From Burkholderiales bacterium (GTDB lineage Bacteria; Pseudomonadota; Gammaproteobacteria; Burkholderiales; SG8-39), in NCBI GenBank assembly GCA_050246035.1, contig JBFWWT010000006.1, positions 6,802-70,801 on the forward strand: a DNA stretch of 64,000 nt, written 5' to 3'. Position 1 is the stretch's first letter; each line of letters starts with the position of its first letter. Made by a program: the position numbers and the translations under genes. The notes under the pieces were generated by a model. That model was given only the letters and a program-made list of their open reading frames with translations, made no database searches and was not told the DNA's origin. This document shows positions 3,130 to 23,213 of the stretch, in pieces.

Positions 3130-3197
3130 GCCCGCTCCAAGCGGCGCTCGCTGTCTACGCTTTCTCTGAACTTGCCGAAACGCGCCGAAGGGGCGCA

Positions 3198-3335: not shown

Positions 3336-3340
3336 TCTGA

Positions 3341-3553
3341 GCGCGCCCGGCGTTTTTCGGGCGCGACCGATGCAAGTCTCGGTAGCTGCCGCTGCGTAAC
3401 GTCGCGTGGCCGCCTGCCACCCGCAAGGCAAGTGCGCGGTACGTTTAGTTCACTTCACGATTGACGCACAGGGCGGCGCCCTCAGGCAGCGGACGTCGCG
3501 AATTGGTGCGCGCGTGCACCCATGATCCGGTGCCAGAGGGGAGGGATTAGTGC
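3341..3553 (-). pseudogene. Remnant homologous to the alkB 3' end plus its downstream flank (copy A')
   Basis: Blocks 3358-3373 and 3487-3553 align with 18494-18509 and 18530-18596. The second block is about three-quarters identical by hand alignment. Homology stops at 3553, where GC drops. Confidence 0.5.
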
Positions 3554-3999
3554 ACGATACAGTCGCAATTGGAAGCAGACACTTTGTGTGGCTTACCACG
3601 GTCAAGGCTTCTGTTGTCGAGGACATAGGGCAGTCCGCATGGGACGCAGCCGATGTCTCTGTACGAAGGAAGTTCAAGCATGAGGGGATGAGTCAAAGGC
3701 ACACGGTAATCATTGCTGCAATACTCGAGGAACTTTGAGCAAACGGTTTACGCTCAAAGCACCTTATAGCAGGGTGGGGCGCTCTTCTTGCATATGCGGC
3801 GCAGATGGCGTCGAATTAGGATCAGGCTCCACCGGCCGTCCAGTCTGAATCCGCCGTTGGGACTTTTGGAATACGGTTGTTGAGAGAGTATGTCTCGGAA
3901 TCTCGTCCCCACTGGTAGCATCCCTTGATGTAGATCAAGCACGGACGTGCAATAGCAAGCTAAAAGAACTCTAATGAACAATATTTGGGGGTGACGACA

Positions 4000-4803: not shown

Positions 4804-5260
4804 TCAGCCGGGTAACGCGCTCCTTCCCCCAAGGTTCGGCTCGGTCTTCGTACATCTCCAACTTGTCTGGAATATCCGCGAAGAAAAAGTCTGTCCCGCC
4901 GCCATCCGCTTCGACCTACAAAACTGCTTGCGGCTTTTCGGCGAGGGGATGCACGGGGTTTGCCACGCCTCGGCCGTGGACCTTGTCGTTGCATGGGCGG
5001 GCGTCAAGCTGATCCGGAGCTGACTTCGGGCGCTCAATGTATTCAGCCCGGTGAGCTGGCCCAGAACCCGTGCATTAGCAGTACAACTGGACCTTCCGCG
5101 AGGGCGTTCTGAAGGCCTGCTTCTTCGACCATCTTGCGCAGATGCGCGAGTTCAGCCCGACCTGGCGCAAGACGCGAAGAACTGCCTTATGAAGTGCTGC
5201 TAAGCCTGCGCGAAGACCCCTGCACGCGCTTCGCGAATCCAACATAAACGCTGCTTGCAT
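4804..5260 (-). pseudogene. Possible decayed alpha/beta-hydrolase gene fragments
   Basis: The minus-strand frame reads ...LRKMVEEAGLQNALAEGPVVLLMHGFWASSPG and then hits a stop. Continuation requires frame changes and no intact ORF exists. Confidence 0.25.
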
Positions 5261-5541
5261 TCGTTTGACGAGGCAGCTCGCGCCTATCTCCTTACTCGTG
5301 GGGAGCTCACCCCATAGGCCTAGTGTCTATAAATCTACGTCATGGTTAGTACTCAATAAGTCAATTCCGTCCTGGCTGGTAGGGGCCGGATACTACGACG
5401 CTCGAAGGATCTGACAGTCGCGCTCGCTAGACAGTTTCATAGAGACGGCGTGGGTCAGGTCGGTTCACTCAGACAGTAAAGGACTCAGCAAGAACGAATG
5501 CGTATGCGACCCCAGTCACGTTCGAAAGCAGGAGGATATTA

Positions 5542-6894: not shown

Positions 6895-6925
6895 TCGTAG
6901 GCGATTAACAAGGGACGATCGCGAT

Positions 6926-7900: not shown

Positions 7901-8133
7901 CTTGGACGCCTCGGAATTTATTGAATGGATGAGAGTTCAAGGCACTACCACGATTTCGGGAGGTTGGTCTCGGAATTCGAGAGCGTTCGCTCGCCAACGT
8001 GACTTCCACTGCCTGGCCGTCGCAGCGGTGATCTCCGGTGTCGAGATCGACCTATTTCGGCGCCGCGCGTGAGCACCCGCCAATCTGTAGTCGCTGCCGC
8101 TTGTCGTTGAACACGCTACCGGACATCGCCTGA

Positions 8134-8607
8134 ATGACAGGAATAATCTATAGGAAATTCGTTCTGGCTCTCGGCTGGCTGGCGGCATTTCTCCTCGGAA
8201 TTGTCGCTCTCCTTGTGACAGCTGAGGTTGTTGCGCGCAATACCGGTATTGGAGACATTCCGTGGGTAGTTGAAGTATCGGAGTACAGTCTGTCGCTCGC
8301 GACCTTTCTGGTCGCTCCGCTGCTTCTGCACAAGAACGAGCATGTGCGGATAGACGTCTTCGTCCCGATGCTTCCGCGCACTGTAGCTCGCAACATTGAG
8401 CGACTGACAGATCTAATAGGCTTTCTGATAAGCGCCGTATTCTCGCTATATGGTCTCAAGCTGGTGTTTGATTCCATGAATGTTCATGCAATGGTGGTGA
8501 AGAATCTCGCGATACCGGAATGGTGGCAGTACGTGCCTGTCGTACTATGTTTCTTCCTACTAGGAATCGAATTCGCCCGTCGCGTTGTTGTAAAGCGTCC
8601 CGCCTAA
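8134..8607 (+). CDS. TRAP transporter small permease (DctQ family)
   Basis: 157 aa with 4 predicted TM segments, positioned between the DctP and DctM genes. Confidence 0.8.
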   Translation: MTGIIYRKFVLALGWLAAFLLGIVALLVTAEVVARNTGIGDIPWVVEVSEYSLSLATFLVAPLLLHKNEHVRIDVFVPMLPRTVARNIERLTDLIGFLISAVFSLYGLKLVFDSMNVHAMVVKNLAIPEWWQYVPVVLCFFLLGIEFARRVVVKRPA

Positions 8608-8636
8608 AACATGCTAAAACATGCTAAGGCGATAGG

Positions 8637-9956
8637 ATGACCTGGTGGTTAGCCGCAATCGGTCTATTCGGCGGGCTCTTGCTCCTCCTTGTGTGCGGTC
8701 TGCCGGCTGCGATCGGATTCTTCGGCATAAATCTCGTCGGCGCATGGGTCTACCTTGGCCACGGCGCGGGCATTATGCAACTCATGCGGGACGGCGTGAG
8801 TTCCATTACGAACTTCTCACTTACACCCATTCCGTTTTTTATTCTTATGGGCGAGGTGTTGTACCACACGGGCATCGGACATCGAGCGATTGACGCACTA
8901 GACCAGTTCATTTGGCGAGTACCTGGAAGGTTGTCAATTGTTGCGGTGGTCGCGGGAACGCTGTTTTCCACAATTTCCGGGTCTACGATCGCCGCGACCG
9001 CGCTACTCGGCAGCGCACTTCTGCCACAAATGCTGCGCCGTGGCTATCATCCCAGCATGGCGCTGGGCCCGATTCTGGCGGTCGGAAGCCTGGACATGCT
9101 CATTCCTCCATCGGCACTGGCCGTGCTGCTTGGCAGCTTGTCCAAGATACCAGTTGCGGATTTGTTGATCGCCGGAATCCTGCCGGGAGCATTGCTTTCA
9201 GTCACGTTCATCGCCTACATCATACTAAGGGTGTTGCATAACAGAGCCCTAGCGCCATCGTTTGGGCATGAGACACCACTGTCTCGATGGAAGCGCTGGA
9301 GAGCGCTGCTCCAGCATGTGGCGCCTCTTGTGTTGATCTTTGCGTTGGTTGTTGCGGCGATGGTAGCTGGATGGGCGACACCTACGGAAGCGGCGGCAAT
9401 CGGTGCCGTATCAACTGTGTTAGCTGCATGGATGTACGGTGCACTTAGGTGGTCGGCGCTGGCGGAGGCGCTGTTGGGTACCGCAAAGATCTCCGGCGTT
9501 ATGCTGTTCATTGTCGTTGGATCAACAACGTTCGCCCAAGTGCTGACTTTTTCTGGAGCCACTCAAGGCGTACTAGAGGTGGTCCAAAATGCCCAGCTTT
9601 CGACGCCTCTCCTTATTGCAGCAATGATTCTCACCTTATTGGTGCTTGGCTGTTTCTTAGATCAAGTGAGCATGATGCTCATGTGCCTTCCATTCTTTAT
9701 GCCGTTAGTAACCAATCTGGGCGTCGACCAAGTATGGTTCGGCATTCTCTTCCTGATCGGCATGCAACTAGGACTCCTGACTCCTCCCTTTGGGATCCTG
9801 TTGTTTGTGCTAAAGAGCGTTGCGCCAAAGGAGATTACTATGCGTCAGATATATCAGGCGGTTACTCCGTACATCATCCTTTGCCTGCTAGTACTTGTGT
9901 TTGTCTTCTTTTTTCCGCCAATCGCCACTTGGCTGCCCAGAGTCCTTTTGGGATAG
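8637..9956 (+). CDS. TRAP transporter large permease (DctM family)
   Basis: 439-aa polytopic protein with DctM-like sequence throughout. Confidence 0.9.
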   Translation: MTWWLAAIGLFGGLLLLLVCGLPAAIGFFGINLVGAWVYLGHGAGIMQLMRDGVSSITNFSLTPIPFFILMGEVLYHTGIGHRAIDALDQFIWRVPGRLSIVAVVAGTLFSTISGSTIAATALLGSALLPQMLRRGYHPSMALGPILAVGSLDMLIPPSALAVLLGSLSKIPVADLLIAGILPGALLSVTFIAYIILRVLHNRALAPSFGHETPLSRWKRWRALLQHVAPLVLIFALVVAAMVAGWATPTEAAAIGAVSTVLAAWMYGALRWSALAEALLGTAKISGVMLFIVVGSTTFAQVLTFSGATQGVLEVVQNAQLSTPLLIAAMILTLLVLGCFLDQVSMMLMCLPFFMPLVTNLGVDQVWFGILFLIGMQLGLLTPPFGILLFVLKSVAPKEITMRQIYQAVTPYIILCLLVLVFVFFFPPIATWLPRVLLG

Positions 9957-10266
9957 CTGTCCGCCGTGGCTCTTAGCGCACCAGATCGCATGATAGGCGC
10001 CCGGGGATGAAAGCGATGTGCGCGGACTCGGTGGAGGCCCAGGCATTAGACGCTGGGCCCCTCCGATTCGGAAGGCTCAAGAAAGGTCCTAGGATCGGGG
10101 TGGCAGCGGGAGGTGGCCCTGTGAATCCATGAACACTTCTACGTTAACAAGAAATGATCGCGTCGACTCGCAGTTCATTGCGTCCTCAACCGCTAGCAAG
10201 TGCCTGAGTGTGAACCGAGCACATCCTTTGTATATCACCCGAAATCCTTAAGAGGGAGAAGCGGGA

Positions 10267-11190
10267 CTAGGCGCTCGAAGTCAATAGAGTCTCGTAACGA
10301 GACCGTAGCGCTACGCATGCGGAGGCAACATAGTCGGTGAAGCGCTCTGTGTAGACCGATGGTGGACGGTGCTTCGCGTAAAGTGCACTGACATCGAATT
10401 CTATTGATGGAAGGAGTGGTCGAAGGGAGACAGCATTGATGTCTGCCTTTGACGCCGTGAACTCGTCGATCACCGCGATACCCGCCCCATGCGTAACAAA
10501 CCAGAGTGCGAGATGGCAAGTCATCACGCTGATCGCAGGATTCAGAGCTACTCTCGCTTGCTCGCATCTCTTCCGTAGGGCAGCGGACAACGGATTCACG
10601 TTCTCCATTAAGGATATAAACGGATATCTCGATAGTTCTCTTACCCCGAGGGACCTCTTCTTGGGCTTCTTCTCGCGAGGGAATGCAGCGATCATACGGC
10701 CGTTATGTAAGCTCCGCCGGTGGATCGCCGGATGATCTAGCGGAGCGTCGGCAAAAGCTATGTCGACCTTACTCGTCAGCAGCGCACTAAATACTTCCTG
10801 CCAATGGTGCGTTTCCAGAGTGCAAGTAATACCAGGATATTTGGACCGAAACCGCTCGATAGCGGTAGGTAGAAGCTCTTGCGCGAGAACTGGCGTTGCG
10901 GAAATGCGGAGATGACCCTTGTCTGCTGCTTTTAAATTCTGGGCAAGAGTACGAACTGCTGCGAGGGCTTGCGAGACACTTTCTACTTCCCTATAGAGAG
11001 CTGTGGCTTCCGGCGTAGGGTACAGACGCCCTTTGATACGGTGGAAAAGCCTGAAGCCAAGTTGGGACTCGGCATGTTGAAGTGTTCGAGTCACGGCGGG
11101 CTGCGAGATGTGAATGAGGTCCGCGGCGCCAGTTACGGAGCCGCTTCGCATGATCGCTTCAAAGACTTCGATGTGTCTCAGCCTCATCAC
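10267..11190 (-). CDS. LysR-family transcriptional regulator
   Basis: N-terminal HTH (MRLRHIEVFEAIMRSGSVTGAADLIHISQPAVTRTLQHAE) and a LysR substrate-binding domain. It is divergent from the reductase/pca genes. Confidence 0.9.
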   Translation of the reverse strand: MMRLRHIEVFEAIMRSGSVTGAADLIHISQPAVTRTLQHAESQLGFRLFHRIKGRLYPTPEATALYREVESVSQALAAVRTLAQNLKAADKGHLRISATPVLAQELLPTAIERFRSKYPGITCTLETHHWQEVFSALLTSKVDIAFADAPLDHPAIHRRSLHNGRMIAAFPREKKPKKRSLGVRELSRYPFISLMENVNPLSAALRKRCEQARVALNPAISVMTCHLALWFVTHGAGIAVIDEFTASKADINAVSLRPLLPSIEFDVSALYAKHRPPSVYTERFTDYVASACVALRSRYETLLTSSA

Positions 11191-11259
11191 AATTTCTCGA
11201 TCGCTACTCTGCAGTGAAGCTTAACATGCCCATGTCCTTGTGTTATGGGAACCCATAGA

Positions 11260-11287
11260 TTATCGATTTGATTCAACGGTTCGATAA
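11260..11287. promoter_or_regulatory. Inverted repeat TTATCGA-N14-TCGATAA in the LysR/reductase divergent intergenic region
   Basis: Perfect 7-bp arms at 11260-11266 and 11281-11287. This is a candidate regulator binding site. Confidence 0.3.
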
Positions 11288-11306
11288 CGTCTAACCTCGT
11301 TTGTGT

Positions 11307-12272
11307 ATGTCGAACGAGTCAACATATCGCGCGCTGATTCAGGTCCGCGTGTCTCGTATAGATAATGTTGCACGCGATGTGAAGGCGTTCGAACTCATGC
11401 CGCTCCATGCGGAGACACTACCGCCTTTCACTCCTGGAGCACATTTAACAGTCTTTCTCCCCCAAGGATTTGCTCGTAAGTATTCGTTATGCGGCGATCC
11501 ACTGCAGCAGAAGCATTACACAATTGCGGTTTTGCGGCAGACAGGATTCGGATCGACTTACATGCACGATGTGTTGGAGATCGGCGATACGCTCGAGATC
11601 TCCCATCCACGAAATCACTTCCCTCTGGCTCAAGATGGGACCAACTATCTTCTCATAGCAGGCGGTATTGGAGTCACGCCGCTCCTGTCAATGGCAAAGG
11701 AGCTCGCCAGTCGAGGCGCGCCATTTTCTTTCCTGTACTGTGCGAGGACACGAGAGCGATCTGCGTACATTGATCAGCTGGAAGCACTTTGCACAAAAGG
11801 GCAACTCGCTCTCCATTTCGACGGAGGAGACCCAAAACGGCAGTTCGACATACGGTCTTTAGTCCAAAGTGCCGGCCGGGATACGCATGTTTATTGCTGC
11901 GGTCCCACCAGCCTCATGAAAGCCGTAAGAGACTGTACTAGGGAGTGGTCGCCGCGCACCGTCCATTTCGAAGACTTCTCTTCCGGCAATTCCAATGGCC
12001 AATTCGAAGACGATGGCTTCGAAATCGTCCTTCGAAAGCGTGGCATCAAGCTTGTGGTACCGCCAGGAAAATCGATAGTCCGTGTCCTGCTAGAGCACGG
12101 CGTTCAAGTAGACACGTCGTGTGAGGCGGGAACATGTGGAACATGCCGTACTCGCTATTTAAGCGGGAATCCTATTCACAACGATTTTGTGCTCACTGAA
12201 CAAGAACAATCGCAGTTTGTAATGATTTGCTGCGCACGGGCCACGGATACACCGCTGGTACTTGATCTATAG
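11307..12272 (+). CDS. Phthalate-dioxygenase-reductase-type oxidoreductase (FMN/NAD-binding plus C-terminal plant-type 2Fe-2S)
   Basis: RKYSL flavin motif, LLIAGGIGVTPLLSM NAD fold, and CEAGTCGTCRTRY...MICC cluster motif. The ATG at 11307 is preferred over the TTG at 11301. Confidence 0.85.
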   Translation: MSNESTYRALIQVRVSRIDNVARDVKAFELMPLHAETLPPFTPGAHLTVFLPQGFARKYSLCGDPLQQKHYTIAVLRQTGFGSTYMHDVLEIGDTLEISHPRNHFPLAQDGTNYLLIAGGIGVTPLLSMAKELASRGAPFSFLYCARTRERSAYIDQLEALCTKGQLALHFDGGDPKRQFDIRSLVQSAGRDTHVYCCGPTSLMKAVRDCTREWSPRTVHFEDFSSGNSNGQFEDDGFEIVLRKRGIKLVVPPGKSIVRVLLEHGVQVDTSCEAGTCGTCRTRYLSGNPIHNDFVLTEQEQSQFVMICCARATDTPLVLDL

Positions 12273-12588
12273 GACGTGAGGCCTGTGGGGGTAGGCCGGC
12301 GAGTAACACTAGATGAATCGATATGGACTTACACAAGGACGCAGACGCGATGCCTAATTCTTGCCCTCATTCGTGAGCGACACCGAGGCTAAGAATAACT
12401 GCGCATCGGCGACCCATAAACAGGATTCGCTCGGAAGCGGGCTCCAAAGCTGAATGCGCAATGCGTTGAGCGCGTCTTCGGTCTTACAAAAATGCGCTAT
12501 CGCCGTAAGGGGAAGGAATCTCTCGCGATAGCCTCGGCAGGTTCTCGTAACTGAAGAAGCAAACATACACTGATATGAGGAGATTCAG

Positions 12589-13296
12589 ATGGCTGAGACC
12601 GTGATTCCGCATCCTTGCGTTTTCGCAGACAAGAAGCGGCTTGAGCTGATCAAAGGCTACCGAGTGCACGAACAGCGCACTCCGTCAAAACCACTTCTGC
12701 TCTTAACACCCTCCCAGACAATCGGTCCGTTCTTCAATTTGAGTTTGATTCGCGACGTGGATGACGATATCGCCCGCAAGGAGCCAGGCGGTGCGCGCGC
12801 GCAGGGAACGCCGATTGTGGTTACCGGGCGCGTCGTCGATGAGCAAGGCAAGCCGGTGCGCAAGGCTTTGATCGAGGTCTGGCAGGCCAACAAGTGGGGC
12901 AAGTACGAGCACCCCGACGACATTACCGACGCGCCGCTTGATCCGAACTTCAAGGGCTGGGGGCGCATGCTGACGGACTCGGAGGGGCGCTACCGCTTTC
13001 GCTCGATCAAGCCCGGCCCGTACCCTAATCCCGGCTACGACAACTGGATGAGACCCCCTCACATCCACTTTTCGATTTTTGCGGCTGGAGTGATGCAGCG
13101 CCTAATCACTCAACTCTATTTCCCGGACGAACCGTTGAACGATATCGATCCGATACTGAATGGTGTCGAGGACCTGAATGCACGCAGTGCGCTCATCGCA
13201 CGCCAACTCCCAGAGGAACCGGACGGCGCACTCGGGTTTCAGTTTGACATCGTGTTGCGCGGCAAGGCCGAGACTGCTTTCTTTGTAGACCATTGA
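12589..13296 (+). CDS. Protocatechuate 3,4-dioxygenase beta-subunit-like intradiol dioxygenase (no alpha subunit adjacent)
   Basis: PcaH-like throughout: EVWQANKWGKYEH, LDPNFKGWGR, KPGPYPNPG, PPHIHFSIFA. The Tyr/Tyr/His/His iron ligand positions appear retained. GAGGAG SD precedes the start. Confidence 0.85.
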   Translation: MAETVIPHPCVFADKKRLELIKGYRVHEQRTPSKPLLLLTPSQTIGPFFNLSLIRDVDDDIARKEPGGARAQGTPIVVTGRVVDEQGKPVRKALIEVWQANKWGKYEHPDDITDAPLDPNFKGWGRMLTDSEGRYRFRSIKPGPYPNPGYDNWMRPPHIHFSIFAAGVMQRLITQLYFPDEPLNDIDPILNGVEDLNARSALIARQLPEEPDGALGFQFDIVLRGKAETAFFVDH

Positions 13297-14639
13297 CCTC
13301 TTGCGTCGTGACTGAAGGTACGGTTGCCAGGATCTTTTCAGAGCGTGCGACGCTTGACACTTATTTGCGTGTGGAAGCTGCCTTGGCGCAGGCGGAGGCC
13401 GACCTTGAAATATTGCCGCAAGCGGCAGCTCGCGAGATCGCGCAAAAGGCAACCATGGACCTGCTCGACCTCACAGCTCTACGCGAACAGTCTGAACGAG
13501 TTGGCTACCCGATTGCACCCTTGGTGCGGCAGCTCACTACGTTATGCGGTGAGCACGGCCGCTACGTACACTGGGGCGCGACGACGCAGGATATCGTTAA
13601 TAGCGCGTTTGCCTCGCAGGTTAACGAAAGCCTCTCAGTATTCGCGTCCGACCTGGCATCGGCGCTGGAGCATCTTGCGGCGCTTGCACGGGAGTATCGC
13701 AAGACAGTGATGGCGGCGCGCACGTTCGGCGGGCATGCATTACCGATCACTTTCGGCTTCAAGGTGGCGGTATGGCTTTCAGGGTTGCTGCGCCACGCCG
13801 AGCGGCTCGAAACGCTGCTCCGCAGGCCGATGGATGGTGAATTTTCCGGTGTCGCTGGCACTCTCGCTTCGCTTGGTACGAAAGGCCAGCAAGTGCGGCG
13901 GCGTCTCATGCAATTGCTTGGACTGTCCGAGCCGATCGTCACTTGGGCACCCATGCGCGACGCCGTGTTTGAGCGCGTCGCATTCCTCGCTGGCTTGACC
14001 GCCACGCTCGCCAAGATTGCGGGTGACGTATCGGAGCTTTCCAGCACGGAAATCGGCGAACTGGAGGAGCCTCTATCAGGAGGCAGGGACACGAGCAGCG
14101 CCTTGCCGTTTAAATCGAACCCAATCTACTGCGCGCAGGTAATGACAAGCGCTTCACTCGTCGCTCAGCACCTCGCGTGCGTGCTCGAAGCGACGCGCCA
14201 GCACCAAGAGAGAAGCGGCGAAGGCTTGCTCGAATTTGTAGCGGCGCCGCAGGCTTTCGTGCAGGCGGAACGTTGCCTGACCTGCTTCCGTCTTCTGATC
14301 GACGGCCTCCGGGTGTATCCCGAGCGCATGTTTGCCAATCTAGGCATGACCCGAGGGGTATTGTTGGCTGAGCGCTACATGATGGCGCTCGCTCCGCACC
14401 TTGGGCGGCTTCCCGCTCATGACCTGGTGCACGAGGCTTGCCGGCGAGCAGTGGTTCAACACGACGATCTACGCACTGTGCTGGCCAACATGCCAGAGAC
14501 AAGGAAGCACCTTAACCCCGATCAACTGGCGGCACTCTCCGATCCCAAGACCTATCTTGGCACTGCCCTCGAAACGGTCGACGAGGTACTCGCCGCAACC
14601 CGGCGCTTCCTGGACGCGCGAGGAAACGAAATAAGATGA
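13293..14639 (+). CDS. 3-carboxy-cis,cis-muconate cycloisomerase-like (fumarate-lyase superfamily, PcaB-like)
   Basis: Lyase signature TSSALPFKSNP in a 448-aa product. The start overlaps the preceding stop; the exact start (TTG 13293 or GTG 13308) is uncertain. Confidence 0.85.
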   Translation: MTSCVVTEGTVARIFSERATLDTYLRVEAALAQAEADLEILPQAAAREIAQKATMDLLDLTALREQSERVGYPIAPLVRQLTTLCGEHGRYVHWGATTQDIVNSAFASQVNESLSVFASDLASALEHLAALAREYRKTVMAARTFGGHALPITFGFKVAVWLSGLLRHAERLETLLRRPMDGEFSGVAGTLASLGTKGQQVRRRLMQLLGLSEPIVTWAPMRDAVFERVAFLAGLTATLAKIAGDVSELSSTEIGELEEPLSGGRDTSSALPFKSNPIYCAQVMTSASLVAQHLACVLEATRQHQERSGEGLLEFVAAPQAFVQAERCLTCFRLLIDGLRVYPERMFANLGMTRGVLLAERYMMALAPHLGRLPAHDLVHEACRRAVVQHDDLRTVLANMPETRKHLNPDQLAALSDPKTYLGTALETVDEVLAATRRFLDARGNEIR

Positions 14640-15520
14640 ACATGCATATACCAGAGTGTCACGGTCCAGTTCCACAGCCATCGCCCCCGAGGCGAACGCT
14701 TCCTAAGGGGTCGTGGGACACGCACTTCCATGTACTCGGCCCGCAAGCGCGCTTCCCGTATTCGCGAGCGCGCAAATACACGCCACCGGACGCTCCACTG
14801 GAAGCTTGCTTGAGCCTGCATGGAACGCTTGGTATCGACCGCGGACTTGTGGTGCATGCCAACACGCACGGCTTTGACAACTCGGTCGATCTCGACGCAG
14901 TGGCGCGCTCGAATGGCAGGTACCTCGCAGTGGTGAGGCTCGACGCTTCCGCCACGCGTGACAGCTGCAGGAATTTGCACGCTGCGGGGGCACGAGGAGT
15001 GCGTTTTGCCTTCAACCCGCAGCATGGGGGTACGCTCGATCTAAATGTGTTTGAGCACGTACTCCGATGCATTGAGGGGCTCGACTGGTTCATTGATCTG
15101 CATTTCGATGGTGCGATGCTGCCGGATCTGCGGCGATGGATAGAAACTATCCCGGCACCAGTGGTAATCGACCATTTGGGCCGCATTGATCCCGGCCATG
15201 GCCTGGACCAGGAACCGTTCCGCGCACTGGCTGCCATCGCTCAACGCGGTAACACCTGGATCAAGATCACCGGTGCCGACCGAATTGTCCGAGGGGGCTA
15301 TCCGTACGCGGACGTGAAACCGTTTGTGCGTCGACTCCTGGAGGTAGCGGCCGATCGCCTCCTCTGGGGTAGCGACTGGCCGCACACCGGGTACTTCAAC
15401 TCGGCGGCGGTGCCGGACGACGGCAGGCTGTTGGACGCGCTCGCGGATTTCGTTGAGAGCGAGGCATTGCTTCACTCCATCCTCGTTGCCAATCCGTTGA
15501 GATTAATCCGGGGTGCCTAA
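14636..15520 (+). CDS. Amidohydrolase_2 family lactone hydrolase (LigI / 4-sulfomuconolactone-hydrolase-like)
   Basis: WDTHFHVLGP, VVIDHLGR and LLWGSDWPHTGY metal and catalytic motifs. ATGA start/stop overlap with the cycloisomerase gene. Confidence 0.8.
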   Translation: MNMHIPECHGPVPQPSPPRRTLPKGSWDTHFHVLGPQARFPYSRARKYTPPDAPLEACLSLHGTLGIDRGLVVHANTHGFDNSVDLDAVARSNGRYLAVVRLDASATRDSCRNLHAAGARGVRFAFNPQHGGTLDLNVFEHVLRCIEGLDWFIDLHFDGAMLPDLRRWIETIPAPVVIDHLGRIDPGHGLDQEPFRALAAIAQRGNTWIKITGADRIVRGGYPYADVKPFVRRLLEVAADRLLWGSDWPHTGYFNSAAVPDDGRLLDALADFVESEALLHSILVANPLRLIRGA

Positions 15521-15684
15521 TTCGCCTACAGTGGACTCCGCCGACTCAATGGACGGGAGCGATGCCCGAAATAAATGTATGACCACCTTTTGACAAGAGC
15601 TAAATCTATTGTGATCGAAGGGGCTCCAGACTGCCAGCGAACTGGCCGCAGTGGAACGATGCTTATTCCAGCTCGAGAGGAGCC

Positions 15685-16743
15685 ATGAAGCCGTTCATCT
15701 ATACCGGCTTCGCGTCCCGCGTCGTGTTTGGTGCCGGCTGCATTGAGCAACTCCCTGACGAGGTCGAGCGCCTGGGCGTCAAACGTGCCCTGATCCTTTC
15801 CACTTCCGAGCAGGCGAACAGTGCGCGAGAGGTAATGAAGGCGCTGGGCGCCCGTGCCGTGGGTGTCTACGACAAGGCCATGATGCACGTGCCCATCGAA
15901 ACGGCCGAGGAAGCGCGACTAGTAGCACGCGAGCTTGAGGCAGACTGCTACGTCACGGTCGGTGGCGGTTCGACTACGGGGTTAGGGAAGGCGATCGCCT
16001 TGACGTCGGGTCTGCCGATCCTTGCCGTACCGACCACCTACGCCGGCTCCGAGATGACGCCGATCTATGGCCTGACCCAAGGCGGAATGAAGAAGACGGG
16101 GCGCGACGCGCGCGTGCTGCCAAAGACGGTGATTTACGATCCGACGCTCACGATAGCGCTACCCCCGACCGTGTCAGCGGTGAGCGGCATGAACGCAATC
16201 GCACACTGCGTCGAGGCGCTCTATGCCCATGACGGGAATCCGATTGTGTCGATCATGGCCGAAGAGGGGATCCGGGCCCTTGCCGCAGCCCTTCCGGTTG
16301 TGGTCGAGAATCCCTCTGACATCCAGGCGCGAAGCAATGCGCTCTACGGGGCATGGCTTGGTGGCATATCGCTCGGTGGCGCCGGAATGGCGTTGCACCA
16401 CAAGCTATGCCACATACTCGGCGGCAGCTACAATCTGCCGCACGCCGACACTCACTCGATCGTGCTCCCGCACGCGGCGCACTACAACGATACGGCGACG
16501 GACGCAATGGTACGGATCGCCCGTGCGCTCGGCGCCAAGGAAGCGCCTAGGGGATTGTGGGATCTCGCATCGAACCTTGGCATCCCCATGGCCCTGCGGG
16601 ACCTCGCTTTCAAGGAAACCGACCTTGAACGCGCGGCAGAGATGGCCACAGAGAGTCCTTATCCCAACCCGAGGCCGGTCGAATATGCCGGCGTGCTCGC
16701 ACTGCTGCGCGACGCGTACGACGGCCGGCCGCCCGGGACCTGA
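15685..16743 (+). CDS. Maleylacetate reductase (iron-containing alcohol dehydrogenase family)
   Basis: FIYTGFASRVVFGAG, VGGGSTTGLGKAIAL and ILAVPTTYAGSEMTPIYG are typical of maleylacetate reductases. Confidence 0.85.
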   Translation: MKPFIYTGFASRVVFGAGCIEQLPDEVERLGVKRALILSTSEQANSAREVMKALGARAVGVYDKAMMHVPIETAEEARLVARELEADCYVTVGGGSTTGLGKAIALTSGLPILAVPTTYAGSEMTPIYGLTQGGMKKTGRDARVLPKTVIYDPTLTIALPPTVSAVSGMNAIAHCVEALYAHDGNPIVSIMAEEGIRALAAALPVVVENPSDIQARSNALYGAWLGGISLGGAGMALHHKLCHILGGSYNLPHADTHSIVLPHAAHYNDTATDAMVRIARALGAKEAPRGLWDLASNLGIPMALRDLAFKETDLERAAEMATESPYPNPRPVEYAGVLALLRDAYDGRPPGT

Positions 16744-16991
16744 CCGCCACGCGCGAAGAGGTCTTGGTTCGGGCTACCGCATCGATCTCTTTCTGTACAT
16801 GTACTTGCGTCAATCGTTGGAACGATGCCCTTTAAGGACCAGCTTCCCTTCATCGCGGGGTGGTACTAGCTGCGCTCTGCGAGGCGTTTCAGGTCGACGA
16901 TGCGCTCGATTAACTGGCCTATGCCTCAACGCGATAATCAGCCTACTCGAGACGCAGTTTGTTCACTGGCGAGGCAGGTAATCGACTGACC

Positions 16992-17657
16992 ATGATTGAT
17001 AAGCGAGCAACTTCGGTCGAAGAAGCGATCTCGGTAGTCAAAGACGGCGCGGTGGTTCTTGTTGGTGGTTTTGGGGACATCGGTGTGCCGCTGAACCTTG
17101 TGTCGGCGCTTGCTGAGCGCGGGGCGCGAAATCTCACAGTGGTGTCGAACAACGCTGGAACGGGCGAAAAGGGTTTGGCGCTGCTCTTTAAGCACGGCCT
17201 TGTCCGAAAGCTGATCGCCTCGTTTCCCGCGCAAGCTGGTGCCGATCACTTCTTTGCTGCCCATGAGCGAGGCGAGGTAACGGTAGAGCTCGTACCGCAA
17301 GGTACTCTCGCCGAGAGGCTGCGCGCAGGTGGGGCGGGACTCGCCGGAATCTTTACGCCGACGGGCTACGGGACAGAGCTAACCGAAGGGAAAGAAACCC
17401 GGCAAATCAATGCACGCGGCTATGTATACGAATCCGCGCTAAGGGGCGATATTGCGCTGGTACGCGCTCAGACCGCGGATCGCTTTGGCAACCTGCGATA
17501 TCGCCTCGCAAGCCGCAACTTCAACCCCCTGATGGCAATGGCAGCCAATCACACGATCGCGGAGGTGAGAAAGGTCGCCGAGCTTGGTGAAATTGATCCT
17601 GACGATATCCATACCCCAGGCGTCTATGTCGACCAGGTCGTAGAGTGCACCGCATGA
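16992..17657 (+). CDS. pcaI: 3-oxoadipate CoA-transferase subunit A
   Basis: CoA-transferase family I alpha sequence (VLVGGFGDIGVPLNLV, ELVPQGTLAERLRAGG). It is followed by the beta subunit with an ATGA overlap. Confidence 0.85.
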   Translation: MIDKRATSVEEAISVVKDGAVVLVGGFGDIGVPLNLVSALAERGARNLTVVSNNAGTGEKGLALLFKHGLVRKLIASFPAQAGADHFFAAHERGEVTVELVPQGTLAERLRAGGAGLAGIFTPTGYGTELTEGKETRQINARGYVYESALRGDIALVRAQTADRFGNLRYRLASRNFNPLMAMAANHTIAEVRKVAELGEIDPDDIHTPGVYVDQVVECTA

Positions 17658-18295
17658 GCAATGGATGGACAGACGATCAACTCGCGCGGCGCGTCGCCAA
17701 AGAGTTCCCCGACGGCTCTTACGTAAATCTCGGCATCGGATTGCCCACAAAGGTGGCCGATCACATTCCGAGTGGCCGAGAAGTTCTCATTCACAGTGAA
17801 AACGGGATCATCGGAATGGGTCCGGCCCCAAAACCCGGAAGTGAGGACCCGGACGTTGTAAATGCCGGAAAGAAGTCTGTGACGCTGGTTAGAGGTGCGG
17901 CGATTGTCCACCAAGCAGACTCGTTCTCCCTCATTCGTGGCGGGCGGCTTTTCGCGTCGGTACTTGGCGGGTTACAGGTTTCCCAGAACGGAGACCTTGC
18001 AAATTGGAAAGTGCCCAACAGCGGCGTGGGAGGGGTCGGTGGTGCGATGGATCTCGCGGCGGGAGCGCAGCGTGTCTTCGTCATGATGCGCCACCGCGAC
18101 AAGACCGGTGGCTCAAAGCTGGTCAAGCGATGCACCTTCTCGCTGACTGCGCCGAATTGCGTCACGACCGTATTTACGGATTTGGGCGTCTTTGATTGCA
18201 AGGACGGACGCTTCATCTGCCGAGAGCTTGCCTCAGATGTTTCCCGTGAGACAGCGATCGGCGCAACCGAGGGTCGCCTTGAGTTTCAGCTCTAG
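17654..18295 (+). CDS. pcaJ: 3-oxoadipate CoA-transferase subunit B
   Basis: Beta-subunit sequence with SENG catalytic Glu motif (LIHSENGIIGMGP). Confidence 0.85.
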   Translation: MSNGWTDDQLARRVAKEFPDGSYVNLGIGLPTKVADHIPSGREVLIHSENGIIGMGPAPKPGSEDPDVVNAGKKSVTLVRGAAIVHQADSFSLIRGGRLFASVLGGLQVSQNGDLANWKVPNSGVGGVGGAMDLAAGAQRVFVMMRHRDKTGGSKLVKRCTFSLTAPNCVTTVFTDLGVFDCKDGRFICRELASDVSRETAIGATEGRLEFQL

Positions 18296-18451
18296 CGGAA
18301 GTATGACTATCGCTACTCGGTGCTCACGGGCGTGTTCGGCCGTCTGCTTGCCGAAGGCTGGATCAGTGAGAAAGACCTTCGTGGGCTTGACACTGAGAAA
18401 CTCGAGCTCATTCGGCGCAGCGCTGGAACAGTGAAGGAACTCGATGCCTGA
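18296..18451 (+). pseudogene. Orphan C-terminal gene fragment (51 codons) directly after the pcaJ stop
   Basis: Protein-like translation RKYDYRYSVLTGVFGRLLAEGWISEKDLRGLDTEKLELIRRSAGTVKELDA with no start codon. I did not recognise the family. Confidence 0.3.
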
Positions 18452-18473
18452 CGCCGAAGCGAAGCCCGGGTAG

Positions 18474-18596
18474 CGCGCGGGCCCGCGCCGCTCCGGGCGC
18501 GACCGATGCGGGGGGCAGGGCGCCTCAACCAGCGGACGTCGCGAATCGCCGCGCCCGAGCATCCATGAGCCGGCGCCAGAGGGAAGGAATCAGTGC
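18474..18596. repeat. Copy B' of the alkB 3' end/downstream repeat
   Basis: Aligns with 3341-3553, apart from about 95 nt extra in the left copy. Confidence 0.55.
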
Positions 18597-19652
18597 GGGG
18601 AAGAAGAGCGCCAAGTAGCCCGCTGGCAGCACGGGCATCGATTCGATGTGTCTGAGGTCGTAGTACGGCACGTCCGCGTCCAGGTGATGATGGACGTGAC
18701 GCGTGATGTTCAGCGTGAACGCGTTCGTCATGAAGCCGTTGCTGTTCCAGGAAAGGCTGCCGCGCGGCGGAGCGGGCGCGTCCCGGCTCAAGCCGTAGTG
18801 CTGCGCGTAGTTCACGTACTCGGTCGTGAATATTCCAAACGCAGCCTGGGCAAGAAAGAGCGCCAAGCCCCATGGCCCGCCGATCATCGCGAACACGACG
18901 ATGACGAAGGCGGTGAGAAGCCACTGCTGAACGTATCGATTGAGGACGAGCCGCTGGCGCTTGGCGAGCTGGCGCCGGCGCTCGATCCGCCAGGCGCTGC
19001 GAAGCGTGAACTGGGCATTCTTCGTCACGGCGCCCCAGACGCTTTGGCCGAGGGGCGGGGTGGTGCCTTCGCTTGCTACGCCGACCTTCGCGTGGTGATG
19101 CAGGTGCTCGAACGGAAAGGGGCCGTAGGCGACGGTCGCCATGATCAGGCGGGCGAGGCCCCGATCAAAGGCCGACGGCCAATGCACCAGTTCGTGCGCG
19201 ACGCAGGTCGCGAACGCAGTGGCTATTGCGACCGACACCACGAGCCAGACAGCTGTCGGGCCGGTTGCCTCATAAGCGAGCGTATGCGCAGCCCAGGCCA
19301 GCGTGCCGAGCCACAGAAAGACGTAGAGGCGGGGCATCGTGCGCAACCACGCGGTGGCAAGGCGCGGTGCACTGCTGTCCAGCGGTTCCGTTCGGTCCGG
19401 GCCGATCGCAAGATCCAGCGCGGGTATGCCGACGAACGCAATGGCCGGCAGCAGCCAAGGGACGTCGGCGTAATACCCGACAAGCACGAGCAGAGGAAGC
19501 GCGGGAAACGCGCTGAACGCGAGAAGCTTGCCGTAATACCAGTGGCGTATTTGCCATAACGCCCCTTGCACAGCCCCCTCGACGCCGTGGGCATGACCGA
19601 TTGTGGCACCAATCCACCGCTCAGCAGCCCAGATCCGGCCGCTGACGAGCAT
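18525..19652 (-). CDS. alkB: Alkane 1-monooxygenase-like integral-membrane di-iron hydroxylase (AlkB / fatty-acid-desaturase family)
   Basis: His boxes HELVHW, EHLHHH and ITRHVHHH plus NYAQHYGL. The first ~35 codons of the ORF lie inside the IS91-end repeat, so the true N-terminus is uncertain. Confidence 0.75.
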   Translation of the reverse strand: MLVSGRIWAAERWIGATIGHAHGVEGAVQGALWQIRHWYYGKLLAFSAFPALPLLVLVGYYADVPWLLPAIAFVGIPALDLAIGPDRTEPLDSSAPRLATAWLRTMPRLYVFLWLGTLAWAAHTLAYEATGPTAVWLVVSVAIATAFATCVAHELVHWPSAFDRGLARLIMATVAYGPFPFEHLHHHAKVGVASEGTTPPLGQSVWGAVTKNAQFTLRSAWRIERRRQLAKRQRLVLNRYVQQWLLTAFVIVVFAMIGGPWGLALFLAQAAFGIFTTEYVNYAQHYGLSRDAPAPPRGSLSWNSNGFMTNAFTLNITRHVHHHLDADVPYYDLRHIESMPVLPAGYLALFFPALIPSLWRRLMDARARRFATSAG

Positions 19653-19684
19653 GACGCGGAACGGACGAAAAGGAAATTCCTATC
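19547..19684 (+). repeat. Solo IS91 right-end (oriIS-like) segment, copy B
   Basis: 138 nt in the same orientation as 3198-3335, ending in GGAAATTCCTATC. No transposase gene lies upstream of it. Confidence 0.6.
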
Positions 19685-19773
19685 CCTCGCTTCGCCCGAA
19701 TTCCGCAAGTTCGTCAACATCACGCTCTCCCGCACCAGCCGCTTCGGCGCGTTGCACGGGGCCTTCTGCTGTT

Positions 19774-20064
19774 TCATTCATGTAACGCCTCAATCGCCTT
19801 CGGGTTTGAAGCAACGATCTTGAGCAGCGCCCTGGCAGGCCCGGTGGGCTGCGTGCGGTGCTGCTCCCAGTTTTGCAACGTGCGCAGATTCACGCCGATC
19901 AATTTCGCGAACTGGCTCTGGCTGATCCGGGCCGCTTCGCGGATGGTGCGCACGTCCGGCTCGGGCAGTTCGGTCGTTCTTGCGCCACGCACACTTTTGC
20001 CTGCCATATGGCGCTTCATTTCACGCACGCCTTTGACCAGTTGGTCGAAATGCTGCTTATCCAT
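19774..20064 (-). CDS. higA: HigA-type antitoxin (XRE-family HTH)
   Basis: 96 aa with HTH segment IREAARISQSQFAKLIGVNLRTLQNWEQ. It overlaps the upstream toxin gene by 8 nt. Confidence 0.8.
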   Translation of the reverse strand: MDKQHFDQLVKGVREMKRHMAGKSVRGARTTELPEPDVRTIREAARISQSQFAKLIGVNLRTLQNWEQHRTQPTGPARALLKIVASNPKAIEALHE

Positions 20065-20377
20065 TTTCGATGTCCTTCATCAATTGTGCCAGCGTGTTGA
20101 TCTGCTTGGGTGTCAGGTCAGCTTGCGCACTCTTGACGTAAGCGTAAATCAGGTAGATGCGTTCCATCGGCACATGCCTGTAGTAGATCACCCTCGCACC
20201 ACCCCGCTTGCCGTGTCCTCGTACAGCCCAGCGCAGCTTGCGCAAACCGAAACCGCCTGCGATCACGTCGCCTGCGTCCGGCGTGGCAAGCAGGAAATTC
20301 TGCAGGCCGCGCAAATCTTCGTCGTTCCACTGCTCGGCACGAAAAGCGATGAACGGCGTGAGCTCGACAAAGACCAT
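20057..20377 (-). CDS. higB: HigB/RelE-family toxin
   Basis: 106 aa counted from the internal ATG at 20377. Contains GGARVIYY...IYLIYAYVKSAQADLTP. The toxin-first gene order is typical of higBA. Confidence 0.8.
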   Translation of the reverse strand: MVFVELTPFIAFRAEQWNDEDLRGLQNFLLATPDAGDVIAGGFGLRKLRWAVRGHGKRGGARVIYYRHVPMERIYLIYAYVKSAQADLTPKQINTLAQLMKDIENG

Positions 20378-20385
20378 TTCGCTAA

Positions 20386-20406
20386 CTATACGCGGCACGC
20401 GTATAG
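20386..20406. promoter_or_regulatory. Perfect palindrome CTATACGCG-GCA-CGCGTATAG, 9 nt upstream of the higB start
   Basis: 9-bp arms that overlap a TATAGT -10-like hexamer on the minus strand. Candidate HigA operator. Confidence 0.4.
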
Positions 20407-20468
20407 CCTGCAACCATGAACAAAATTCCGAGCGTTGGGGGCGATTTCCGGGGAAGTTGAAACGCCGA

Positions 20469-20487
20469 CTGTTAGCACTGCTAACAG
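20469..20487. promoter_or_regulatory. Perfect palindrome CTGTTAGCA-C-TGCTAACAG upstream of higBA
   Basis: 9-bp arms, about 90 nt upstream of the higB start. Confidence 0.35.
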
Positions 20488-20803
20488 TTTGAAGCCATAG
20501 CACCGACGGCCGAGCGCGTGGGAACTTTCAATTCGAATGCGCGGTCACACTTTCAATCCGGTTGATGCCCGTCATCGCATCCTCGCTCGCAAGAGCGCCG
20601 AAACCGGCCTCATTTCCTGAAAGCCGGTGGCCGCAAGGCTTGGAGATACTCGTTAGCATCAGCCCCTCGGGGCGTCCAGTGCTGCGCATGACGCAATAAT
20701 TCGCGTCCCCCGCGGCAGCGCCTCGTACTGAAACAACCCATCCGGCGCGATCCCTGCGCCAACCCTCGTCCGCATCGCTGCGGCAATTCGTCTGCGCCAA
20801 CAG

Positions 20804-20837: not shown

Positions 20838-21555
20838 CGCACAGGTACGCAACGGCGGGGGTTTCCAGCCGATTTTGCCAGTGCCGCAACCCAGTGATGA
20901 GCTCCCTGGCGCATCACGCCGTACAACCGCGCAATGCGGTTCGTCCCTCTGCCCGTTCCCCAACGGGCGTCGTTTGTCCTCGCGCGCACCCCGCGCACTC
21001 CCGAGCCTTGGGTATTGGTTCAACTCGATGGGTCGAGTTCCCACAGGAACCGCCATCGAAGCCAAGAGCGGGTGCAGCCGCGGCGAGCAGCAAAAGGAAG
21101 CACTGCACAAATCGGGAGTGGTGTCCCGGGTCCCTCGTAGATCTCGTTCTGCCTAGGCAGGCGAGACGGACAGAAACACTAACCGGACAGGCAGCACACA
21201 CCAGCAGCAGCAACGCAGCAAGCGGAAGGCAGCAAGACGCGACGGATCGGGTTGGAAAGGGAATCGATGGCAGCTAGCGCAAAGACGGCGAATCGACTGC
21301 AACTGGACTGCAGGCCATTTGCTCTCCGGTGCGTACCAGCGTGAGGCGCTGTGCCTAGCACGCCGGGCAAACGGAACGGTACGGCCGGGGCGCAAGGTGC
21401 GCCCGCCTCTGTTAAGCTCTTGGTTCCGCTACCCGAGGATGCGTTGGTTCCCGGCGAACTCGAACTCATCTGGGCCCACCTTGCGGGGCTCTTGCATCGG
21501 GTAATACCGCCAGAAGTCGATTTCGACCCTTCCTTTGATTCGGAGGCGAACCGCC

Positions 21556-23202
21556 ATGGCCGTAGCCCTGTATGCGCGAGTTTCGACGACTCGCCAAGCC
21601 GAGAACGATCTGTCGATCCCGGATCAACTGCGCCAGCTCCGGGAGCACTGCAAGACCCATAACCTGCCCGTTGCCTCGGAGTACGTGGAACCAGGCGCGT
21701 CCGCGAGCGATGATCGGCGCCCCGTGTTTCAGCAGATGATTGCGGATGCGACGCAGCCGCCTGCGCCGTTCGAGGCGATCCTGGTCCACAGCCGTTCGCG
21801 CTTCTTCCGGGACCTGTTCCAGTTCCTGCACTACGAGAGGGTGCTGAAGAAGGTCGGGGTCAAAATCGTCTCGATCACCCAGCAAACGAGCGATGACGCG
21901 GCCGGCGAAATGGCGAGCAAGCTCTTCAGCCTGTTCGATGAGTACCAGAGCAAGGAGAACGCGAAGCACACCCAGCGGGCGATGCAGGAGAACGCCCGCC
22001 AGGGGTACTGGAACGGCTCCGTGCCGCCCTTTGGCTTCCGGGCAGCAACGACCGAGATCGTCGGGAATCGGGGCCGACACAAGCGCCGGCTCGAGCTCGA
22101 TCCGGTGGAAGCGGAAACCGTGCGGGAGATCTACCGCCTGTACCTCGCCGGCCACGACGGCAACGTCATGGGCATGAAGGCGATCGCGACGCACCTGAAC
22201 CGCCAAGGCCTCACCATGCGCGGGCGCCCGTGGCGCATCCAGAAAGTGAATCGGCTGCTCGCCGACCCGCTCTACGCGGGCTGTTTTTACTTCAATCGGC
22301 GCGACTCCCGGACCCACAAGGAGCGGCCCCAGCAGGAGTGGATCGCGGTAGCGGTCCCGGCGATCATCGATGCCGGCGCCTTCGAGCGGGTGGCAAAGCG
22401 CCGCGCCATGAGCAACCCGAACGCGTTCCCGCCGCGGGCGATGGCCTCGCCCGCACCGCTCGTGGGCCTGCTCAAGTGCGGACACTGCGGGGCGGGGATG
22501 ACCCAGGCGTCTGGCAAATCGGGGCGCTACCGCTACTACAAGTGCACCACGCGCATGGCGCAGAACGTAGATGCCTGCACGGCGAAGAACCTGCCGCGCG
22601 AGCAGACCGATGGGCTGGTGCTGCACGCGTTATCCGAGCGGGTATTCACGCCCAAGCGCGTGTCCCTGATGCTCAACGAGCTGCTGCGGCACCAGCGCCA
22701 GGCGAAGACCGCCGAGGATGCCCGGCTCATCACGATGAAGACGGAACTCGACCGGGCGACGACGGGCCTGGATCGCCTCTATAAGGCCGTGGAGGAAGGC
22801 GCCCTGTCCATCGACGAGACACTGCGCACGCGCACGCAGAAGCTCAAAGCGCGTCGTAGCGAAGTGCTCACCGAGATGGCGAAGCTCAAGGACCGGCAGG
22901 CGCTCGCGGTGCGGCGGGTGAACGCGGACACCGTGAAAGCGTTCTGCGCGGCGCTGCAAGAGCGCTTCACCGACCCATCCTCGGGCCTGGGCAAAGCCTA
23001 CCTGCGCTTGCTGGTGGACGAAATCAAGCTCGACGGGAACGAACTGGTAGTTACGGGCAGCCACCGGCGCCTCGCGGACGCCTTCGGCTTCATGCAGAAA
23101 ACAAAGCTGGGAGAAGTGCCCAGCTTCGTGAATGACTGGCGCGCCCGGCGGGATTCGAACCCACGACCCTTGGCTTCGGAGGCCAATACTCTGATCCGCT
23201 GA
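21556..23202 (+). CDS. Large serine recombinase (resolvase catalytic domain, recombinase domain, zinc ribbon, coiled coil)
   Basis: MAVALYARVSTTRQ catalytic Ser motif, GYWNGSVPPFGF, and LLKCGHCGAGM...YYKC zinc ribbon. GGAGG lies 9 nt before the ATG at 21556. The last ~22 codons are antisense to the tRNA. Confidence 0.9.
   Translation: MAVALYARVSTTRQAENDLSIPDQLRQLREHCKTHNLPVASEYVEPGASASDDRRPVFQQMIADATQPPAPFEAILVHSRSRFFRDLFQFLHYERVLKKVGVKIVSITQQTSDDAAGEMASKLFSLFDEYQSKENAKHTQRAMQENARQGYWNGSVPPFGFRAATTEIVGNRGRHKRRLELDPVEAETVREIYRLYLAGHDGNVMGMKAIATHLNRQGLTMRGRPWRIQKVNRLLADPLYAGCFYFNRRDSRTHKERPQQEWIAVAVPAIIDAGAFERVAKRRAMSNPNAFPPRAMASPAPLVGLLKCGHCGAGMTQASGKSGRYRYYKCTTRMAQNVDACTAKNLPREQTDGLVLHALSERVFTPKRVSLMLNELLRHQRQAKTAEDARLITMKTELDRATTGLDRLYKAVEEGALSIDETLRTRTQKLKARRSEVLTEMAKLKDRQALAVRRVNADTVKAFCAALQERFTDPSSGLGKAYLRLLVDEIKLDGNELVVTGSHRRLADAFGFMQKTKLGEVPSFVNDWRARRDSNPRPLASEANTLIR
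23136..23154. repeat. attR-like direct repeat (within the tRNA-Arg 3' end)
   Basis: Identical to 1495-1513. Confidence 0.7.
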
Positions 23203-23213
23203 GCTACGGGCGC
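23137..23213 (-). tRNA. tRNA-Arg (anticodon CCG)
   Basis: The reverse complement is a 77-nt cloverleaf: acceptor GCGCCCG/CGGGCGC, anticodon stem TTGGC/GCCAA with loop CU-CCG-AA, T-loop GGTTCGAATCC, encoded CCA. Confidence 0.9.

Follow-up and report, generated by a model that had tools for sequence, protein, structure and literature searches.

The window analysed here is a 64,000-nucleotide stretch of contig JBFWWT010000006.1 from a Burkholderiales bacterium. It contains an insertion sequence (IS) of the IS91 family and, further along the same strand, a solo second copy of the right end of this element, an assignment already made in the initial annotation and borne out both by the limits of the repeat and by relatives in which it is linked to the transposase gene, tnpA. 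The IS (1759–3334, + strand) consists of a left-end palindrome, tnpA, a 69-nt spacer and a right-end module, and its left limit is common to four copies. The tnpA product (gene at 1858–3129, + strand) has Zn_Tnp_IS91 and Y2_Tnp domains (Pfam matches of 1.6e-18 and 2.8e-17), and it scores 155 bits on the NCBIfam model transpos_IS91 (cut-off 125). HVH and YYGRY motifs are present in the translation, and the protein has the two catalytic tyrosines and the N-terminal zinc-binding domain of an HUH transposase. It does not belong to the ISCR clade, since it reaches only 109 bits on the NCBIfam model for ISCR clade Ia (cut-off 925). Judged by these sequence matches, the element is a new member of the IS91 family outside the ISCR clade.

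The two ends of the element are different. The left end is the palindrome CAACGCG..CGCGTTG (1758–1785), a single palindrome at the boundary, as in a terIS, which begins where the homology of the four IS copies stops. The right end, like an oriIS, lies downstream of tnpA, has subterminal palindromes and no terminal inverted repeats, and is followed by a target tetranucleotide. In the published layout of IS91, oriIS with its subterminal palindromes lies beside the target tetranucleotide and a single palindrome marks the cleavage site of terIS (PMC13181058); the module and the palindromic left end of the present element match this layout. Matching flank repeats of the kind left by target duplication are not seen around the copies, except for TCCT/CCCT around the copy in G185/G190 (G and L numbers denote the genomes and loci compared).

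The two copies of the right end are referred to as A and B. Copy A (3199–3334, + strand) is linked to tnpA and is followed by CTCT (3335–3338). Copy B (19548–19683, + strand) has no transposase gene of its own and is followed by CCCT (19684–19687). Copy B has the orientation of the IS and marks the junction where a captured fragment of an alkB gene, with its 15-kb catabolic insert, meets the backbone of an island at a tRNA-Arg gene. As first described, the pair covered 3198–3335 and 19547–19684, each 138 nt long and on one strand, with the first 22 nt identical, one difference (G/A) in the last 29 nt and a diverged interior, all of which is correct. In an alignment of 14 sequences, the tips of A and B agree at 21/21 and 27/28 positions and the interior at 55/90 (61%), with small indels. 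In a blastn search of the 2.85-Mb assembly, the pair aligns over 141 columns at 76% identity (E = 1.5e-17), and a third copy is not found. Comparison with copies in other genomes defines the repeat proper as 3199–3334 and 19548–19683 (TATTTGCC...TTCCTAT), a module of about 136 nt, and the limits of copy B are sharp on both sides.

Structure of the right-end module and its linkage to tnpA

Fourteen copies of the module have four or five conserved blocks in common. In the consensus fold, the left tip (TGCCATAACG) pairs with a block in the middle (CG-ATTGTGGCA) over 10 nearly invariant base-pairs, and the right tip forms a 4-bp GGAA/TTCC hairpin. The initial annotation, which recognised the two tips, missed this third conserved block in the middle of the module (TGACCGATTGTGGCA), the partner of the left tip. 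The inverted repeat is accepted because its two arms are jointly conserved. When individual copies are folded as single strands, the result is significant for A (z = −3.2) and not for B or G125, and of all the predicted folds the shared stem alone is taken as real. No Rfam family matches the module.

At its right limit the module ends in GGAAATTCCTAT, which is followed directly by the target tetranucleotide, while the left limit falls between any base (N) and TATTTGCCATAACG. The tetranucleotide is CCCT in 14 of 18 copies, and in eight of the 11 metagenome copies with a readable right flank; the variants are CTCT, CCCC, CCTT and CCGA, with unrelated DNA beyond. Copy B departs from the consensus at one of the 94 strongly conserved columns of the 14-copy alignment. 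Copy A is the more deviant, with departures at eight of the 94, among them a mismatch in the stem, and with CTCT in place of CCCT. Since B keeps 93 of the 94 conserved columns while its interior is 20–30% different from other lineages, it appears to be under continuing constraint.

The original explanation for conserved tips around a diverged centre was selection on DNA sites, and this agrees with the wider comparison, in which the tips are kept in about 30 copies whose interiors differ by 20–30% between genomes. Conservation of a coding sequence is excluded, as the indels are not multiples of three and a conserved start codon is absent. The more specific suggestion that both tips are recognition or cleavage sites of the transposase needs modification: selection on DNA sites stands, and the left tip is an arm of the inverted repeat rather than an obvious cleavage site.

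The module has a constant position relative to tnpA. It begins 69–74 nt after the tnpA stop codon in the window (69 nt), in G125, G195, G193 and G004 and in L036, a metagenome-assembled genome (MAG), and in all six the spacer and the 3′ end of tnpA to the left of the module are conserved. A survey of the 317 genomes of the same family found homologues of tnpA in 52 of them, and 23 homologues reach the C terminus. In 12 of these 23, which have 52–95% amino acid identity, the heptamer TTCCTAT occurs 198–238 nt after the stop codon. The tetranucleotide next to it in these relatives has the form C-N-N-T (CCGT in four of them), and distant members retain the left-tip block in the form GACATAAGCGCCGTTGTGCG. 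The occurrence of TTCCTAT and the tetranucleotide at a fixed distance from the tnpA stop indicates that the repeat is the element's own right end, and the 136-nt repeat is thus probably a functional, oriIS-type right-end module of an IS91-family rolling-circle IS. In the IS copy of G004 (L010:8291-9227, G004:C217), tnpA has lost an internal part that corresponds to window positions 2052–2594; the G004 assembly breaks within the module, which suggests that there are several copies in that genome.

Solo modules, arrays and module lineages in other genomes

Pattern and BLAST searches find the module in eight of the 317 genomes of the same family, in 13 stretches among 185,579 species genomes and in 11 metagenome stretches. 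All of the copies come from MAGs or metagenomes, mostly of Burkholderiales. About 30 further copies were tabulated, of which about eight are linked to tnpA and more than 25 are solo. More than 20 solo copies have the same sharp left limit, between N and TATTTGCC. Adjacent modules are in direct orientation in 10/10 pairs; direct pairs 1.5–1.9 kb apart are found in G015, L038, L065 and L075.

The largest array is in G125, whose IS is 92% identical to that of the window and lies in the same type of island at tRNA-Arg. Here five solo modules and a partial tip of 32 nt follow the tnpA-linked module, and all of them have the same strand. The segments between the modules have a GC content of 57–63%, as against 70% outside, and contain partial genes: an ABC membrane domain, a CoA-transferase III that lacks its N terminus, an rve fragment and a type IV secretion system (T4SS) coupling protein. 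The last module adjoins CCCT and the final 40 codons of the island recombinase, to which that gene has been cut by the array, and the G125 island is probably no longer able to excise. The last 32 nt of the sixth module, together with CCCT, are tandemly duplicated (L027:12493-12680; a 37-nt unit with two differences), and this duplicate could be a product of re-initiation or of slippage at the nick site.

Solo copies elsewhere were also checked for flanking cargo, as the initial annotation had proposed, and truncated and unrelated genes are joined at them. Every solo junction that could be tested is of this kind. The genes cut at right junctions include those for a CoA-transferase and a DUF5615 protein, and those cut at left junctions include a GAF domain gene and an ORF6N-like, Rha-type frame, the latter named from its translation by eye. 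In open reading frame (ORF) tests on joined flanks, long frames span the junction in L068, L067, the L075 pair and the L038 pair, and no Pfam domain is continuous across any tested junction. The frame in L068 is antisense, and the flank of L075 has no relative in its genus. The G185/G190 copy lies in a variable intergenic region, where the inserted unit could not be delimited. The solos consist of the right-end module only, and so differ from miniature inverted-repeat transposable elements (MITEs), which have both ends and form simple insertions with empty sites. One solo, in G194:C134 (L028:6950-8283), is found 206 nt to the 3′ side of a gene that scores 483 bits as an integron integrase (TIGR02249), and the ORF6N-like frame between the two is truncated where the module begins on the left. 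Integrase loci related to this one are present in 26 of the 34 genomes of the genus of G194.

Module copies within one genome are 90–100% identical (G125, G015, G193 and L038), as against 76% for A and B. Copy B is 90–92% identical to all six G125 modules. Copy A is only 68–76% identical to every other copy, even though the spacer to its left is identical to that of G125 at 30 of 31 positions; relative to the G125 module, at about 75% overall, its tip is near-identical and its interior much lower. The IS body of G195 is 96.4% identical to that of the window, and its module is a mosaic, of the G125 type for 64 nt and of another type after the middle block. A unit made up of a module and 711 nt, 98% identical, is common to L008 and L072, with left flanks that are unrelated from the first base. 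In G194:C161, which has the same island backbone (90–93% identical), a solo lies at the position of B beside the toxin–antitoxin genes, and the DNA to its left differs from that of the window. From these identities, A and B are best described as members of different module lineages and not as a local duplicate that has drifted. The picture of a drifting centre in the initial annotation is corrected accordingly: the divergence of the centres does not date from a local duplication, and mosaic modules exist. The mosaics and the swapped flanks indicate that modules have been exchanged at the conserved blocks, and the module tends, in the cases compared, to stay with the DNA on its right. In L072 (977–1000), the shared unit ends next to AACG|AATAGGAAAGCCTAT, which resembles another inverted end of the type of IS-X, a second IS91-family element described below; IS91-type ends thus seem to cluster and nest.

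The alkB locus, the catabolic cargo and the island

Between A and B lies a split alkB locus. The gene for an alkB-type alkane hydroxylase (18525–19652, − strand) is a 375-aa frame without its own first three codons. The tail of the locus is at 3341–3592 (− strand) and comprises a terminator-like hairpin (3341–3373) and a remnant of the last 36 codons (3592..3482), which encodes the peptide ALIPPLWHRIMGARAHQFATSAA up to the stop codon and is 144 nt from copy A. The two parts are separated by about 15 kb of low-GC (50–61%) catabolic cargo for aromatic degradation (3554–18522), integrated in the 3′ end of alkB. The cargo is bordered by 74-nt repeats of the alkB end (3480–3553 and 18523–18596) that are 82% identical, a pattern that would be expected of an element integrated in the 3′ end of a gene and bringing a replacement end; no integrase was recognised in 3554–5540. 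If the cargo is subtracted, what lies between A and B amounts to 1.3 kb of an alkB locus.

The other end of alkB meets copy B. Nearly all of the full-length homologues listed are 335–360 aa long (typically 343) and cover about 90% of the 375-aa frame, and the six closest start with MxxRxWYY in the alignment. The DNA of the nearest homologue is 81% identical over window positions 18515–19547, ending one base before B, and no module is present upstream of it. At the point where B begins, the alkB gene of the window has thus been deprived of its promoter and of precisely three codons at its start. Its only in-frame start codons, GTG at 19571 (with GAGGGGG before it) and ATG at 19652, are both within B. 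Since the starts are supplied by B, any expression of alkB depends on the transposon end.

All of these features are part of an island of 21.6 kb (approximately 1516–23136). Its left limit, attL (1497–1514), is an 18–19 nt repeat of the 3′ end of tRNA-Arg, found again from 23137 onwards, and its integration site is the tRNA-Arg(CCG) gene with attR (23137–23213, − strand). In the relatives G002, G023, G014 and G021 the site is empty, with dctM (14–1489) joined directly to the sequence from window position 23136 onwards. The island has a large serine recombinase gene (21535–23202, + strand), and its backbone includes genes for an Xre-type antitoxin and a RelE-type toxin (19774–20503, − strand). 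The antitoxin region to the right of B (19724–20009) is 98% identical to G008:C111, whereas adjacent chromosomal DNA is 84–91% identical, which points to recent exchange of the island backbone between species of the genus.

To the left of the IS lies an inverted right-end remnant of the second IS91-family element, IS-X (1564–1758, − strand), which in its own orientation ends in TTTTCCTAT followed by CGTT. A full copy of IS-X in G008:C111 has a tnpA with about 65% amino acid identity and the same end about 209 nt after the stop codon. The homology limit of this end in G008 and G007 falls between AACG and ATAGGAAAA, and the end has the same heptamer, TTCCTAT. The sequence GATAGGAA at 1564 was considered as a left (8-bp) inverted repeat of the IS and was rejected; the comparison with G004, G125, L036, G008 and G007 puts the start of the IS at 1759 and assigns 1564–1758 to the inverted end of the other element. 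The IS adjoins or interrupts the IS-X remnant. The islands of the window and of G125 differ at this junction, G125 keeping about 600 nt more of IS-X, including a fragment of its tnpA.

A possible mechanism, competing explanations and significance

In the mechanism that we infer from this layout, the transposase would nick any intact module between TAT and CCCT, that is, between the right end and the tetranucleotide, and the strand would be displaced leftwards through tnpA to the left palindrome, where transfer would end. A solo located downstream in direct orientation would then act as a second start, and the weaker inner module, A, would be read through. In the window, copy B would be the second origin of a composite unit, in which the IS and everything up to B (1759–19683, 17.9 kb) would move as one, and the system may be active at the present day. 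The segment between A and B could be lost or exchanged, either because copying that starts at one origin terminates at the next or because the conserved blocks undergo homologous recombination, and mosaic or exchanged modules would be the outcome. Since the left limit of the solos is fixed, copying may be able to stop at the hairpin of the module itself, a structure similar to the left-end palindrome and, like it, adjacent to the boundary, and solos may arise in this way. Alternatively, they may be what remains after recombination between modules has deleted everything else. Several such rounds would produce the arrays seen in other genomes. An unlikely but conceivable extension is that the module works in trans as a self-contained "cassette end", within a system of gene assembly run by an HUH transposase. 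Its right tip would initiate and its left hairpin would terminate or join, so that the module and the adjacent DNA could be excised, exchanged and stacked downstream of tnpA by single-strand nicking and joining, in the manner of an integron.

Several observations weigh against a functional right end that drives composite movement. The stem is invariant and gains no support from covariation. No circle junction, no empty site of the composite and no second location of the 17.9-kb unit were found among the assemblies, and the other assemblies that contain the unit (L123 and L124) are of the same population, being 99.99–100% identical. In joined-flank ORF tests on 23 units and Pfam searches, none of the solos could be recognised as a simple insertion between contiguous flanks, so that the 136-nt module is at most a candidate for independent movement. 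In three cases the module goes with its right flank while the left flank varies: L008/L072, the G194 solo beside the toxin–antitoxin genes, and copy B, which matches the tnpA lineage better than A does. This persistence is not predicted by a simple leftward, one-ended model, and fits recombination at the module or some growth point at its left edge.

A serious though doubtful alternative is that B is an inert scar with no present role in mobility, a remainder, after recombination and deletions, either of the IS end with which the island began or of an earlier IS copy, and that the arrays elsewhere are debris of homologous recombination among dispersed copies. There is no transposase gene beside B, the equivalent solo by the same backbone in G194 shows that B is old, the mosaics and swapped flanks show that homologous recombination acts on the repeats, and the movement of a composite has left no evidence that was found. 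A scar is harder to reconcile with the retention of 93 of 94 conserved columns in B despite 20–30% divergence of the interior, which argues for constraint, with the single sharp left limit of more than 20 solos, unlike what random deletion would leave, and with the direct orientation of 10/10 adjacent pairs.

The 136-nt unit could also be a repeat in its own right, such as an attC-like site or a miniature element, that the IS merely targets, with the true end of the IS at about 3197. Solos outnumber tnpA-linked copies by about 3 to 1, and each of three IS bodies with 94–96% identity has a module of a different kind, the similarity breaking off at the left tip. The conserved tips, variable centre, length of 136 nt and direct arrays recall attC sites, and the G194 solo is only 206 nt from an integron integrase gene. 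This explanation is nevertheless quite improbable, since TTCCTAT with its tetranucleotide and the left-tip block vary together with tnpA across the subfamily, as far as relatives of 52% identity, and keep a fixed distance from its stop codon, and since IS-X ends in the same heptamer. The tips of the module do not pair with each other as the R″ and R′ boxes of attC do, there is no integrase at the arrays of the window or of G125, and the G194 solo is 3′ of intI and not on the attI side. An attC site in particular was rejected on structure and on the linkage to tnpA. Finally, 19547–19684 might be the native 5′ region of alkB, and A the remnant of a second alkB hit by the IS. The alkB frame does run through B, with the GTG and its GAGGGGG Shine–Dalgarno sequence inside the module, the 22-mer at the left tip would encode QGALWQI, and an alkB 3′ remnant lies 144 nt from A. 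The initial annotation had named a conserved alkB upstream region as the finding that would overturn the IS-end assignment, and the comparison with homologues speaks the other way: the full-length proteins nearly all lack the 32–35 residue extension, and the DNA of the nearest homologue, which aligns only as far as 19547, has no copy of the 138-mer upstream. The module is also found about 30 times without alkB, and at A the alkB-end and module repeats stand in a permuted order. This origin of the repeat is hardly tenable at all and was rejected.

With the module taken as its right end, the element resembles IS91, IS801 and IS1294, which are known for one-ended transposition, in its HUH two-tyrosine transposase with a zinc-binding N terminus, its two different ends and its right end downstream of tnpA, with subterminal palindromes and a specific tetranucleotide (PMC13181058). 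It differs from them in that the tetranucleotide is CCCT or C-N-N-T instead of CTTG/GTTC. IS91 carries extra DNA beyond its left (terIS) end, whereas here the extra DNA is on the side of the right end and is closed by further right ends. To our knowledge, discrete solo right-end modules have not been described for IS91, IS801 or IS1294, and no description of them was found in the open-access papers searched. Like the present element, ISCR elements (ISCR1 and ISCR2) have their cargo on the origin side (PMC6218425), and direct repeated or truncated copies flank this cargo; circular ISCR forms have been inferred (PMC5737581, PMC7722449). ISCR remnants, however, are cut at variable points, unlike the solos with their one fixed left limit, and the cargo here consists of catabolic genes and gene fragments, not of resistance genes.

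Two other systems have a similar arrangement. Helitrons with several 3′ termini have direct arrays of one kind of end downstream of a Rep-type gene, with captured host gene fragments between them. They are eukaryotic elements with a Rep–helicase fusion, and their repeated end is the terminator, whereas the repeated end here would be the origin by the IS91 rule; the likeness drawn here is one of layout. Integron attC sites also form direct arrays of 60–140-nt units with conserved tips and variable centres that are similar within a genome and different between genomes. Unlike attC sites, the module has no RYYYAAC/GTTRRRY boxes pairing at its two ends, it is linked to an IS91 transposase gene and not to intI, and truncated gene fragments, not whole promoterless cassettes, lie between its copies.

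Rolling-circle capture by IS91-family and ISCR elements is believed to be a route by which genes for resistance, virulence and catabolism spread, and the arrival of DNA on the origin side of tnpA is still argued from a few clinical structures. The present family provides a cleaner natural record, with a short module of fixed limits that occurs solo and in arrays of up to six, readable junctions and some mosaics. The tRNA-Arg islands of the window and of G125 have different contents between the IS and the outermost module, and a third island, that of G194, has different DNA beside its equivalent solo. Since the solo ends recur in related uncultured bacteria, singly and in direct arrays, at junctions of unrelated DNA, they probably assist this transposon family in acquiring and rearranging foreign genes. 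Should the module by itself be able to start or stop transfer, a sequence of 136 nt would suffice for the mobilisation of neighbouring genes in trans, and alkB and the 15-kb aromatic-degradation cargo would lie inside a potential 17.9-kb transposable unit that is itself nested in an integrative island.

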